Shown here: piece by piece, positions 52,601 to 58,600 of the stretch
Numbering within the stretch: the stretch's first letter is position 1
Layout of the letters: every line of letters begins with the position of its first letter
Source: Escherichia coli 042
Lineage (GTDB): Bacteria; Pseudomonadota; Gammaproteobacteria; Enterobacterales; Enterobacteriaceae
Direction: 5' to 3' (one strand)
Length of the DNA stretch: 64,000 nucleotides
Assembly: GCF_000027125.1 (NCBI RefSeq)
Contig: NC_017626.1
Program-made: the position numbers

Positions 52601-55600
52601 GAACGATCGCGCCGGTAACCCCGGTCAAACCACGCACGCCCTGACCGTCGATACCGTTGCGCCAACGGTCACCATCGCCACGGTGGCGGGTGACGATATT
52701 ATCAACAACGCCGAGCAGCTTGCCGGGCAGACCATCAGCGGCACCACCACCGCTGAAGTGGGCCAGACGGTGACCGTCACCTTTAACGGTCAGAGCTGGA
52801 CTGCAACGGTCGGCAGCGGCGGAAGCTGGTCGGTGTTTATTCCGGCGCAGCAGTTTGCCGGATTAAGCGACGGCAGCTACACCATTAGCGCGACGGTTAG
52901 CGATCAGGCCGGAAACCCCGGCAGCGCCAGCCGTGGCGTGACGCTGAACGGCGATGTGCCCACCGTCACCATCAACACCTTTGCGGGCGATGATGTGGTG
53001 AACGCGGCGGAACACGGCACATCGCTGGTGATCAGCGGCACCACCACCGCGCCGGTCGGACAGACGCTGACCCTGACCTTAAACGGCAAAACCTACACCA
53101 CCACGGTACAGACCGGCGGTAGCTGGAGCTACACCCTCGGCAGCGCCGATGTCACTTCGCTGGCGGACGGCAATGCCTACGTGATTAACGCCTCGGTGAG
53201 CAACGCCATTGGCAACACCGGCAGCAGCAATCACACCATTACTGTCGATCTCAGCGCCCCGGCGATGGGTATTAATATCGATTCCCTGCAAGCCGACACC
53301 GGGCTTAGCGCCAGCGACTTTATCACCAGCGTCAGCCCGGTGGTGGTCAACGGCTCGCTCACCGCCGCGCTTGCCAGTAACGAGACGGCACAAATCAGTA
53401 TCGACGGCGGCGTAACCTGGACCACGCTCACCGTTACCGGCACGACCTGGCGCTATAACGACAGCCGCACGCTGACCGATGGCAACTATCTCTATCAGGT
53501 GCGGGTGATTGACGCTGCGGGCAACGTCGGTGCCACCGACAGCCAGAATGTGGTGATCGACACCATCGCGCCAGATCCCGCGGTGAAAACCATCGCCATC
53601 AGCGCGATCACTACCGATACGGGCCTGATCACTAACGATTTTGTCACCAGCGACACGACGCTTGCGGTAAGCGGCACGCTGGGCGCGGCGCTTTCTGCCG
53701 GTGAGTTCGCGCAAATCAGCATTGATGGCGGCACCACCTGGCAGAATCTTTCGGTAAGCGGTTTGACCTGGACCTGGCTTGACGGGCGGACGCTGACCGA
53801 TGGCAACTACAACTATCAGGTGCGGGTTATCGACACCGCCGGAAATATCGGCGCGACCGCCAGCCAGATAGTCACTGTGGACACCACCGCGCCGCTGGCG
53901 AGCAAAACCATCGCCATTGCTGGCATCAGCGATGACACTGGGTTAAGTAGCAGCGATTTTGTTACTCGCGACACCACGCTGACCGTGCGCGGCACGCTCG
54001 GCGCGGCGCTTGCCGCCGATGAACGGGCGCAAATCAGCCTCGACGGCGGTGTCACCTGGACCACGTTAACCGTTATCGGCACCAGCTGGAGCTATGCCGA
54101 TGGTCGCACACTGACCGACGGCACCTGGAACTACACGGTGCGGGTGGTGGATCTGGCGGGGAACGTTGGGCAGACCGCAACGCAAAATGTGGTGGTCGAC
54201 ACCACCAGCCCGGAAGCGGCGAAAAGTATCACCATTACCGGTATCAGCGATGACACCGGAGCCAGCAGCAGCGATTTTATTACCAGCGACACCTCGCTTA
54301 CCGTGCGCGGCGTATTGGGGGCGGCGCTCGGCGCTAACGAGTTCGCGCAAATCAGTACCGACAACGGCGCAACCTGGGTGAACGTGACCGTCGCCGCAGA
54401 CGGCCTTAACTGGAGTTACGTTGACGGACGCACGCTCACCAACGGCACCACCACCTGGCAGGTGCGGGTGGTCGATCTGGCGGGCAACGTTGGCGCAACC
54501 GGCAGCCAGTCGGCGCAGATTGACACCGTGAACCCGGCGCAGGTGCTCACCATCGCCAGCATCAGCACCGACACGGGGAGTTCGGCAACTGACTTTATCA
54601 CCAGCGATACCTCGCTCACGCTGACCGGTTCGCTGGGGGCGGGGCTTGCCAGCGGCGAAGTGGCGCAGATTAGCCTCGACGGCGGCGCGACCTGGATCAC
54701 GCTCACCACCAACGGCACGCAGTGGACCTACACCGACGGCCGCACGCTGACCGACGGCAGCTACGTTTATCAGGTGCGGGTGCTGGATCTGGCGGGAAAT
54801 ACCGGTCCGGTGGTGTCGAAAACGGTGGTGGTCGATACGATTAACCCCACCGCGACGCCGACCATTGTGTCGTACACTGATGACGTCGGGCAGCGGCAGG
54901 GGACATTAAGCAGTTCGCAGGCCACCGACGACACTACGCCGTTGCTGAACGGCGTGCTCTCCGGCCCGCTTGCCAGCGGTGAAGTGGTTTACCTCTACCG
55001 TAACGGCCTGCTGTTAGGCGCGGTAACGATGGTAGGCGCACTGAACTGGACCTACAGCGACAGCGGGCTGGTGAGCGGTGCCTACACCTACAGCGCGCGA
55101 GTGGTGGATCTGGCGGGGAATATCACCTCCTCCAGTGATTTTGTCCTGACGGTCGATACCTCTATTCCGACCACGCTGGCGCAAATTACCAGCCAGACCA
55201 CGCGCGATACCACGCCGATTATCAGCGGGGTGATCACGGCGGCACTCGCCAGCGGGCAGTATGTTGAAGTGGTGATCAATGGCAAAACCTACACCTCTGA
55301 ACCGGGCGGTGCGGTGGTAGTCGATCCGGCGCACAACACCTGGTATGTGCAACTGCCGGATACCGATGCGCTGACAGTTTCCGCGACCGCCTATACCGTT
55401 ACTGCGCAGGTAAAAAGCTCGGCGGGAAACGGCAATAACGCCAATATTAGTAACGGCACGGTGACGGTTAACGCAACGATTGATTATACACCGACCTGGA
55501 CCACCACCAGCAAAACCACCGCCTGGGGGCTGACCTACGGCCTCGACTCGCACGGGATGTGGACGGTGCTGGCAAACCAGCAGGTAATGCAATCGACTGA

Positions 55601-58600
55601 CCCACTCACCTGGTCGAAGACCGCGCTGACGCTGTATCAGAGCGGCAACAACTATGCCACCAGCTCCATCGCCGATTACGACCGTAACGGTACGGGCGAT
55701 CTGTTTATCACCCGTGATGACTACGGTACAGGCTATATCAACGGCTTTACCAATAACGGCGATGGCACCTTTTCCAGCGCTATTCAGGTCACCGTCGGCA
55801 CCCTGACGTGGTACGGCTCGATTGTGGCATTTGATAAAGAGGGCGACGGCTATCTCGACTTCTGGATTGGCGACGCGGGCGGGCCGGACTCCAACACCTT
55901 CCTGTGGAACAACGCAGGTACGCTGGTAGGTAACTCCACCACGTCGAACAGCGGCGGTAGCGCCACGGTGGGCGGGGCGGTGACGGGGTATCTTTCGCTC
56001 AACGAAGGTTCTGGCGTCGATCTGAACAATGACGGCAGGATCGACCTGGTTCAGCACACCTACAACCTGAACAACTATTACACGCTATCTTCGCTCATCA
56101 ACCAGGGGAATGGGACGTTTGTCTGGGGGCAGAACACCACCAATACCTTCCTGAGCGGGGCGGGCAGTGGCGCTATGAGCAGCAGCGTTTCCATGACCTG
56201 GGCGGATTTCGATGGTGACGGCGATATGGATCTCTTCCTGCCTGCCAGCCAGGGAAGAGCTAACTACGGCTCCCTGTTATTCAACACCAACGGCGTGCTG
56301 GGCAGTCCGGTGGCGGTGGGGGCAACGGCAACCACCTACGCCAGCCAGTTTAGCGTGGCGGTGGACTGGAACCATGACGGTCTGATGGATATCGCCCGTA
56401 TCGCCCAGACCGGACAATCGTATCTTTATACCAACGTCAGCAACGCCAGCAACTGGACACAATCGGCCCTCGGAAGCAGTCAGAGCGGTACGACCAGCGG
56501 CGTGGCGGCAATGGACTACGACTGGGACGGCGCGGTGGATGTGCTGGTGACTAAACAGTCGGGCAGCGTCTATCTTATTCGCAACACCAACACGGTGAGC
56601 TACGGCACTTCGCTGCACCTGCGCATCACCGATCCCAACGGCATTAACGTCTATTACGGCAATACCGTGAAGCTGTACAACTCGGCGGGGGTGCTGGTCG
56701 CCACGCAAATCATTAACCCGCAGTCGGGGATGGGGGTTAACGACACCTCGGCGCTGGTCAACTTCTACGGGCTGAACGCCGGGGAAACCTACAACGCGGT
56801 GCTGATCAAATCCACCGGCACCACCGCCAGCAATATCGACCAGACGGTAAACACCACCTGGGGCGGCTTACAGGCCACCGATGCCACTCACGCTTACGAT
56901 CTCAGCGCCGAAGCAGGCACCGCAAGCAACAACGGCAAGTTCGTCGGCACGGGCTATAACGACACCTTCTTCGCCACCGCAGGCACCGATACTTACGATG
57001 GCTCCGGCGGCTGGGTGTACAGCTCCGGCACCGGAACGTGGCTGGCGAATGGCGGGATGGACGTGGTTGATTTCCGCCTCTCGACGGTGGGCGTGACCGC
57101 GAACTTAAGCAGCACCACCGCGCAGGCTACTGGCTTTAACACCTCGACATTTACCAATATCGAAGGCATTTCCGGCTCGAATTTTAACGACACTCTGACC
57201 GGCAGCAGCGGCGATAACCAACTGGAAGGGCGCGGCGGCAACGACACGCTCAACATCGGCAACGGCGGTCACGACACCTTGCTCTATAAACTGCTCAACG
57301 CCAGTGACGCCACTGGCGGCAACGGCTCGGATGTGGTGAATGGCTTTACGGTAGGGACATGGGAAGGCACCGCCGACACCGATCGCATTGATATTCGTGA
57401 ACTGTTACAGGGCAGCGGCTACACCGGCAACGGCAAAGCCAGCTACGTCAACGGCGTGGCAACGCTGGATGCGCAGGCCGGAAACATCGGTGATTTTGTC
57501 AAAGTCACCCAGAGCGGCAGCGACACCATCGTGCAGATCGACCGCGACGGCACGGGCGGCACTTTTGCGGCAACTAACGTGGTCACGCTGACGGGCGTGC
57601 ATACCGACCTCGCCACTTTGCTGGCGAATCATCAGTTGATGGTGGTGTAGAGAATGAAAAAAAATGCCCAGTCCGTGGAAGCCTGGCTGGAGGCGATGAT
57701 CGCCGTGGCGCGTTATTACCGCCTTGATTTTTCTCAGGAGAACGTGCGCGCGACCGTCAACTGGGAGCGCGACAGCAAGCGGGAGGAGTTGCTCACCGAC
57801 ATGGCGCGGCAACTGGGAATGGGGCTGCGGCTGGTGGAGTTTTCCGCTGATTCGCTTAACCCCTGGCGGCTGCCGCTGATCGCGGTATTTGATAATCAGC
57901 AGGTTGGCGTGATCACCCGCCGTGACAATCACGACAATATCAGCATTCAGTTCAGCGGTGACGAAGGGCTGGAAACTACGCTTAACGTCGCGGATGTTGA
58001 GGATAAAATCGTTGAACTGGCGCTACTGCGCCCGCTCAGCGCCATCCCTGACGCGCGGGTGGATGACTACATTCGCCCGTATCAGGCGAACTGGTTCTGG
58101 AGCCTTTCCCTAAAAGACTGGCGGCGCTATGGCGATATTATGCTGGCGTCACTGGTGGCGAACGTGCTGGCGCTGGCGGCGATGATTTTCTCGATGCAGG
58201 TTTACGACCGGGTGGTTCCGGCGCAGTCCTACCCGACGCTGTGGGTACTGTTCGCCGGGGTGATGATGGCGATCCTGTTTGAGTTTTGTATGCGTATGGT
58301 GCGCACGCACCTTTCCGATGTGATCGGTAAGCGGGCGGATCTGCGCATTTCGGATCGCGTTTTTGGTCACGCATTACGGCTGAAAAATAACGTGCGATCG
58401 AAATCTACCGGATCGTTTATCTCGCAGATCCGCGAGCTGGAATCGGTGCGGGAGCTGATTACTTCCACTACCATCGGCGCGGTGGCGGATCTGCCGTTCT
58501 TCCTGCTGTTTGTCTTTATTCTGTGGATGATCGGCGGCTGGTTGGTGCTGGTGGTTTTGCTGGCGTTGCCCTTGCTGGTGATCCCCGGCCTGCTGGTGCA

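Follow-up and report, generated by a model that had tools for sequence, protein, structure and literature searches.

The C-terminal end of the giant adhesin SiiEA in Escherichia coli 042: a predicted propeller-sandwich module in a disrupted gene

The 64,000-nucleotide stretch of the Escherichia coli 042 chromosome analyzed here (NC_017626.1, assembly GCF_000027125.1; hereafter the window) carries siiEA, the gene for a giant protein that RefSeq names "BapA-related adhesin SiiEA." This locus raises the question of what the last 4.4 kb of the gene (53250-57650) encodes, and whether the product could still serve the strain. We conclude that the region very probably encodes the distal C-terminal end of SiiEA, composed of Big_13 domains, a β-propeller, a β-sandwich, an RTX roll and a TIGR03661 domain, which would be secreted by the type I route and form the likely binding tip of the adhesin. 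The gene is already known as E. coli siiEA, part of a tolC-siiEA-ABC-HlyD island (ABC, ATP-binding cassette), and the novelty of the region is low because it is a correctly read part of a named and partly characterized adhesin. From the gene content and the context in O157 strains we infer that the siiEA locus is O-island 28 (OI-28) of enterohemorrhagic E. coli (EHEC) O157:H7. The name SiiEA stems from by-analogy annotation in strain UMN026.

Domain organization of the C-terminal region

From the N-terminal side, the domain order is an extender of Ca_tandemer-type bacterial immunoglobulin-like (BIg) domains, seven Big_13-type Ig-like domains, the propeller, the sandwich, the RTX roll and the TIGR03661 domain (Table 1). 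A preliminary description of the region, made from the nucleotide sequence, had proposed a second class of repeats, an FG-GAP or VCBS-like propeller as the likely ligand-binding tip, sparse RTX repeats and a type I secretion signal. All motifs that it quoted lie in the plus-strand frame of the open reading frame (ORF) 51201-57650 exactly where it had put them, and two of the checks that it proposed, a hidden Markov model (HMM) scan and structure prediction, both find the propeller and the RTX fold.

The Pfam family FG-GAP_3 (PF13517, formerly "VCBS") matches four stretches within 55461-56750 with a score of 90.3 bits (cutoff 26.9; E 1.2e-25), and PF01839 reaches 21.3 bits, slightly below its cutoff of 22.1. 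The last 709 amino acid residues (residue 1 at 55521) were used as the query to collect homologs; 40 of these from other genera were aligned with the window sequence, and an AlphaFold2 model built with the resulting 41-sequence alignment (mean predicted local distance difference test score, pLDDT, 88.1; predicted template modeling score 0.91) contains a β-propeller. Seven four-stranded blades can be read from the strand pattern in the secondary-structure output over residues 1-360, and on this pattern and its matches to seven-bladed propellers we read the predicted propeller as seven-bladed. The model is matched best by CRTAC1, by integrin alpha headpieces and by lectins of the propeller type; the N-acetylglucosamine lectin PAL and UmbA4 are further Foldseek matches.

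The four calcium-binding-like D-x-D-x-D motifs on which the propeller had originally been proposed are all present in frame, and two more were found, giving a total of six. Each lies at the start of a blade and has the hairpin pattern D-x-[DNE]-x-[DN]-G-x-x-D; the positions are residues 52, 105, 167, 229, 282 and 332. Throughout the 41-sequence alignment the Asp and Gly of the hairpins vary little or not at all, which argues that the loops are not a product of chance, and all six are predicted calcium sites. In propellers of the FG-GAP type such DxDxDG calcium hairpins occupy one face and the ligand is bound on the opposite one; integrins have three or four calcium-type loops, against the six of SiiEA. 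The sole disordered loop of the model (residues 140-155, 55938-55985; pLDDT <50) is rich in Gly and Ser, as is the loop at residues 207-221 (56139-56183). Of the 17 positions in the propeller at which nine E. coli alleles differ, six fall in this second loop. Either could be a flexible surface loop.

Foldseek also returned the propellers of a PL11 rhamnogalacturonan lyase and of galactose oxidase (E ~1e-6 to 1e-5), which raises the prospect that the adhesin carries an enzyme at its tip, such as a polysaccharide lyase or oxidase. Such matches are generic for propellers, however, with 9-12% identity and a high root-mean-square deviation; no catalytic family HMM was matched in the Pfam scans of the region, and the invariant residues are the Asp and Gly of the calcium loops and form no catalytic constellation. 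An enzymatic tip is thus highly improbable.

Between the propeller and the RTX roll lies a β-sandwich, a domain that the preliminary description had overlooked. It occupies the place of the ASPIC/UnbV domain in CRTAC1, and that assignment was therefore put to the test. Comparison with ten PF07593 domains by hhalign gave a probability of 0.09, and PF07593 was found in none of 24 homologous sandwich segments at E-values up to 10, so that an identity with UnbV_ASPIC (PF07593) is not demonstrable. The likeness of the sandwich to CnaB or transthyretin domains is at least equal to its likeness to UnbV_ASPIC. What does resemble CRTAC1 is the layout of the two domains.

Residues 469-612 are modeled as a β-roll of short regular strands, in which about eight turns can be counted; some five of its nonapeptides are near-canonical, GRGGNDTLN and GNGGHDTLL among them. 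GSGGWVYSS begins at 57000 and GRGGNDTLNIGNGGHDTLL at 57228. The RTX repeats had been called sparse, and indeed the Pfam HemolysinCabind family matches a single stretch (57174-57278), whose 24.2 bits barely exceed the cutoff of 23. The segment aligns with the RTX blocks of Bordetella CyaA (E 2e-5), and its fold matches are PrtC, serralysin and CyaA blocks IV-V. The proposed type I secretion signal is likewise in place. Over the last ~100 residues (57330-57638), TIGR03661 (T1SS_VCA0849) scores 34.9 bits against a cutoff of 17.6, with DRIDIRELLQGSGY beginning at 57381 and DTIVQIDRDGTGG at 57522, and this domain lies directly 5′ of the LssB-type ABC transporter gene and the HlyD adaptor gene.

On the N-terminal side of the propeller, seven repeat units start from 53274, with DTGLSASDFITS beginning at 53295. 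Their period of 103-108 residues, together with a period of 318 bp reported by Tandem Repeats Finder, agrees with the earlier estimate of about seven repeats of roughly 105 residues. A Pfam scan of the whole region gives six Big_13 stretches (E 4e-65); scanned singly, units 1 and 6 match this family, and unit 7 gives no Pfam match. With the NCBIfam model Ca_tandemer the units score 19-28 bits, versus 91 bits for the last repeat of the first class, and they distantly match the structure of BIg50-52 of Salmonella SiiE (2yn3; E 1e-7). The first-class repeats and the Big_13 units together form a long tandem array of Ig-like extender domains of the calcium-stabilized type. The notion of a second repeat class holds insofar as a separate set of repeats exists, but by these profile matches the set is still Ig-like and a distant relative of the first class.

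Table 1. Features of the siiEA locus in the window, in order of position
Feature	Coordinates	Strand	Evidence or remark
TolC-family outer membrane protein gene	35409..36764	+	ORF; same gene so annotated in Ecol_316 and O157 ATCC 35150
siiEA giant adhesin gene, 20,778 bp, disrupted in the window	36873..57650	+	98.3% identity over full length to Ecol_316 siiEA
Lesion 1, GGG to GGGG (+1 frameshift, extra G at 38201)	38198..38201	+	Ecol_316 alignment; ORF breaks at 38207
Lesion 2, AA to A (-1 frameshift, ~45796)	45795..45797	+	Ecol_316 alignment; ORF frame switch at 45816-45819
Lesion 3, TGG to TAG nonsense codon (VSN*PAG)	51069..51071	+	Ecol_316 alignment
Five well-conserved Big_13 Ig-like units, ~106 residues each	53274..54857	+	Units 2-5 54-60% identical to unit 1; Big_13; 2yn3
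Unit 6, diverged Big_13 domain	54858..55181	+	31% identical to unit 1; Big_13 E 2e-10
Unit 7, strongly diverged Ig-like unit and linker	55182..55520	+	23% identical to unit 1; Ca_tandemer 28 bits, below cutoff
Predicted seven-bladed FG-GAP/VCBS-type β-propeller, residues 1-360	55521..56600	+	FG-GAP_3; AlphaFold2 model
Calcium-type loop 1, DYDRNGTGD (DYDRNGTGDLF at 55674)	55674..55700	+	D52, R55, G57 nearly invariant
Calcium-type loop 2, DKEGDGYLD (FDKEGDGYLDF at 55830)	55833..55859	+	D105, G110 invariant; not in the preliminary description
Calcium-type loop 3, DLNNDGRID (DLNNDGRIDLV)	56019..56045	+	D167, G172, D175 invariant; not in the preliminary description
Calcium-type loop 4, DFDGDGDMD (DFDGDGDMDLF)	56205..56231	+	D229, D233, G234, D237 invariant
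Calcium-type loop 5, DWNHDGLMD (DWNHDGLMDIA)	56364..56390	+	D282, G287, D290 invariant
Calcium-type loop 6, DYDWDGAVD (DYDWDGAVDVL)	56514..56540	+	D332, G337, D340 invariant
Post-propeller β-sandwich, transthyretin/CnaB-like fold, residues 361-468	56601..56924	+	Separate domain
RTX β-roll, few canonical nonapeptides, residues 469-612	56925..57356	+	HemolysinCabind; CyaA match; model; fold matches
C-terminal type I secretion target domain (stop codon 57648-57650)	57357..57647	+	TIGR03661
Type I secretion ABC permease/ATPase, LssB type	57654..59816	+	TIGR03375, 835 bits, cutoff 693
HlyD-family periplasmic adaptor	59813..60988	+	TIGR01843, 328 bits, cutoff 209

Conservation of the module

Among the matches listed, the whole propeller-sandwich-RTX-signal module occurs at full length, with 35-57% identity, in Enterobacter, Pluralibacter, Acinetobacter, Pseudomonas, Serratia, Limnobaculum, Bartonella, Diaphorobacter and Stenoxybacter, and several of these homologs are annotated as type I secretion target proteins. 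The closest relatives outside Escherichia in the same set are from Pluralibacter gergoviae and Enterobacter hormaechei (54-55% amino acid identity), and none of the 120 matches listed for the module is a Salmonella protein.

Compared with the O157:H7 allele, the ratio of nonsynonymous to synonymous substitution rates (dN/dS) is 0.02-0.11 for each segment of 54858-57647. Variable residues among the nine E. coli alleles number 27 of 709, of which six are those clustered in the Gly/Ser-rich loop at 207-221. The low dN/dS and the recurrence in other genera suggest a module with a present or recent function, on which purifying selection has acted.

Position and proposed role of the propeller-sandwich module

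SiiEA shares with LapA, MpIBP, FrhA and AhLap a long calcium-stabilized Ig-like extender and an ABC transporter of the LssB/LapB type, and in those proteins too non-repetitive domains stand just before the C-terminal RTX roll and secretion signal; its putative N-terminal retention module would correspond to theirs. By analogy with RTX adhesins of the LapA/MpIBP type, the adjacent LssB-type ABC transporter would recognize the C-terminal signal, and the unfolded chain would leave the cell C-terminus first through the ABC transporter, HlyD and the TolC-like channel. Once outside, calcium would fold the RTX roll, the propeller and the Ig-like linkers, which would drive export and stiffen the stalk, while the N-terminal BapA-prefix module would be retained in the outer-membrane pore. 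Retention at the N-terminus and export with the C-terminus first would together put the propeller-sandwich module at the distal end of the fiber, and there it would most likely bind a host or surface ligand, either glycan or protein, in a calcium-dependent manner.

No genes for a LapG protease or a LapD receptor are found within the island, which contains only the tolC-like gene, siiEA, and the ABC and HlyD genes. A dialanine motif, TAAG, follows the BapA-prefix domain at residues 97-100 of SiiEA (37161-37172) and resembles a LapG site as a motif match only. A Gly/Ala-rich hydrophobic stretch, PWGWLAGAAVGGGALGALLASGG, begins at 37263.

That the propeller binds a ligand is its most likely role, judging by where it sits and by its structural kinship with lectins, integrins and CRTAC1, and we hold this view with moderate confidence. 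The propeller and second domain share their overall fold with mouse CRTAC1 (PDB 9etn). Identity to CRTAC1 and other FG-GAP plus ASPIC/UnbV proteins is nevertheless only ~15%, the sandwich lacks an UnbV_ASPIC match and SiiEA has no EGF domain; its context, moreover, is that of a type I secreted adhesin. The integrin alpha propeller and the propeller lectins (PAL and, by extension, PVL and the bacterial BP39L, PLL and CV39L) are likewise seven-bladed and have extracellular binding roles, but identity here is 6-14%, and SiiEA has neither a beta-subunit partner nor an I-domain.

The main alternative is that the propeller is a calcium-dependent folding unit, a bulky domain that would fold upon emerging from the channel and which, with the short RTX roll, acts as a ratchet or stopper against back-sliding and nucleates folding of the stalk, and is not a ligand binder. 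The RTX roll is unusually short, with its one Pfam stretch at the cutoff; the six calcium-type loops are the most conserved residues across genera; and extracellular calcium enhances the effect of OI-28 on adherence (PMC12758282). All three would fit such a unit. On the other hand, many RTX adhesins are secreted with short rolls and without a propeller, the structures closest to the propeller belong to extracellular binding modules, and a two-domain module of 470 residues would be costly as a mere ratchet. We consider this role unlikely, although it is compatible with ligand binding and the two are not mutually exclusive.

Returning to the proposed ligand-binding tip, the tip domains catalogued in a 2026 survey, which covered 35 RTX adhesins from seven species, include carbohydrate-binding modules and vWFA domains but not a propeller, and in the RTX-adhesin literature searched no propeller-sandwich tip module is described. 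Tentatively, the propeller and the transthyretin-like sandwich might represent a distinct class of ligand-binding tip of RTX adhesins, perhaps a calcium-dependent lectin or a matrix-binding module. If so, the class would be common to giant type I secreted proteins of Escherichia, Enterobacter, Acinetobacter, Pseudomonas, Serratia and Bartonella, and would be a bacterial structural counterpart of animal CRTAC1; its dependence on calcium could explain that of the adherence mediated by OI-28 in EHEC. A ligand-binding propeller-sandwich tip, undescribed in published work, would also be an obvious target for receptor identification and for blocking adhesion.

Disruption of the reading frame

Alignment of the window gene with the intact siiEA of Ecol_316, a 6,925-residue ORF of exactly equal length, reveals two frameshifts and a nonsense codon (Table 1). 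It is because of these lesions that the ORF finder returned siiEA in four pieces (36873-38207, 38293-45819, 45816-51071 and 51201-57650); the +1 and -1 indels cancel, and the length of the gene is therefore still exactly 20,778 bp. The C-terminal region falls in the last piece, 3′ of all three lesions. The window allele has no unbroken frame from the putative retention module to the secretion signal. As sequenced, it therefore cannot give rise to a full-length, anchored product, and the most that the strain could make and secrete is a C-terminal fragment without an anchor. An annotation as a pseudogene fragment (or re-sequencing) would suit the region better than one as a stand-alone protein of 2,149 residues.

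Is the region then a functionless relic in strain 042, siiEA being a decaying pseudogene whose C-terminal module is not made? We lean slightly toward this view. In its favor are the three inactivating lesions 5′ of the region and the lack of any promoter-like signal above chance level inside or before ORF 51201-57650. Among eight siiEA alleles inspected in other strains, five are intact (18,975-20,778 bp) and three, those of O157:H7 ATCC 35150 (locus 1971-22130), O145 RM9873 and K_EC180, are classed by RefSeq as pseudogenes on the grounds of an internal stop or a missing N-terminus. Against decay speak the complete identity of the last 4.4 kb to the intact allele and the low dN/dS relative to O157, from which any decay must be very recent. 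Two of the lesions, moreover, are changes in the length of short homopolymers that could be sequencing errors, and the split O157 alleles are reported as needed for adherence (PMC12758282).

The remaining 351 differences from Ecol_316, out of 352 substitutions in all, lie nearly all within 37211-46904, in the BIg array, and the 3′ 6.7 kb is nearly identical in the two alleles, with only two differing sites across 46905-57650 (10.7 kb). This distribution suggests repeat recombination, gene conversion or a mosaic allele in the first half of the array.

Relation to O-island 28

The window gene agrees with the SiiEA/OI-28 adhesin of other strains in identity, chromosomal site and neighbors. In O157:H7 alleles the C-terminal 2.1 kb is 96.5% identical, and the same tolC-siiEA-ABC-HlyD context is found by ybaT and cueR. 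The window allele differs in having its own three lesions and, relative to Ecol_316, a mosaic BIg array.

OI-28 of EHEC O157:H7 comprises tolC28, two "RTX" ORFs, z0609 and z0615 (RtxA28/RtxB28), hlyB28 and hlyD28 (PMC12758282). According to this 2025 report, the island is present in all O157:H7 genomes examined, is activated by RstA and is linked to early adherence in the gut; mutants deleted for OI-28 or for a single one of its five genes adhere less to Caco-2 cells and colonize mice less well (PMC12758282). We surmise that z0609 and z0615 are pieces of a split siiEA. In the report the O157 pieces figure as distinct RTX proteins, both needed for adherence, and no explanation is given of how a split gene would yield an anchored product (PMC12758282).

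These phenotypes bear on a further possibility, that the tip module serves aggregation between bacteria or binding to a biofilm matrix, in the manner of Bap, and not recognition of a host receptor. The N-terminus of SiiEA is of the BapA-prefix type, and homologs of the module occur in Diaphorobacter, Pseudomonas zeae, Limnobaculum and Bartonella apis, environmental or insect-associated bacteria without a common mammalian host. The impaired Caco-2 adherence and mouse colonization of the OI-28 mutants (PMC12758282) argue against it, and aggregation as the purpose of the tip seems quite unlikely.

Several points weigh against the interpretation of the region as the ligand-binding tip of SiiEA and against our account of the locus. 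The equation of OI-28 with siiEA is drawn from gene content and O157 context and not from a statement of the paper itself, and the allele behind the published EHEC phenotypes is, in the O157:H7 strain compared here, classed by RefSeq as a pseudogene. The OI-28 study describes only "RTX" and "Ig-like" domains, and names no pseudogene, propeller, sandwich, ligand or receptor (PMC12758282). The residues conserved across genera are mostly those of the structural calcium loops, so that conservation does not point to a binding site. Finally, the first two lesions, situated in short homopolymers, could be sequencing errors.

The Salmonella adhesins SiiE, encoded by Salmonella pathogenicity island 4 (SPI-4), and BapA are comparable in being giant type I secreted BIg proteins, the likeness extending to the BapA-prefix N-terminus and the 2yn3 match. 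Unlike SPI-4, the siiEA island has no accessory genes of the SiiA/SiiB type, only the three transport genes.

The island, its distribution and neighboring genes

The four-gene island sits in the chromosome between ybaT (33779-35071) and cueR (60985-61392). Its G+C content (35409-60988) is 59.5%, against 51-52% in the flanks, which is consistent with horizontal acquisition. All three transport genes flank siiEA, the TolC-family gene upstream and the ABC and membrane fusion (HlyD) genes downstream. The identity of siiEA is supported by the exception-level NCBIfam model NF047714 (adhesin_SiiEA), a 229-residue N-terminal signature matched within 36873-38204 at 507.4 bits (cutoff 425). A BapA prefix-like domain (NF033677) at the N-terminus scores 72 bits (cutoff 35) and is a candidate retention module.

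In a collection of 5,426 complete E. coli genomes the 4.4-kb 3′ region is found in 958, always chromosomal and in a single copy each; SiiEA/OI-28 is thus carried by ~18% of complete genomes. The last 4.4 kb is 100% identical in Ecol_316 and several further genomes, and 24 genomes show at least 99% identity over this length; the maximum for the whole gene is 98.3%. The window allele of siiEA is without a representative in the collection.

A second adhesin gene adjoins the island, a 584-residue ORF on the minus strand (62104-63858) at a place where Ecol_316 and O157 are annotated with a shorter (~1.0 kb) YadA-like or YadA-family autotransporter adhesin. Three minus-strand ORFs overlap the C-terminal region, at 55014-56057 (347 residues), 53079-53714 (211 residues) and 57405-57932 (175 residues). 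They carry no annotation in RefSeq genomes and are most likely by-products of the high G+C content of the coding strand.

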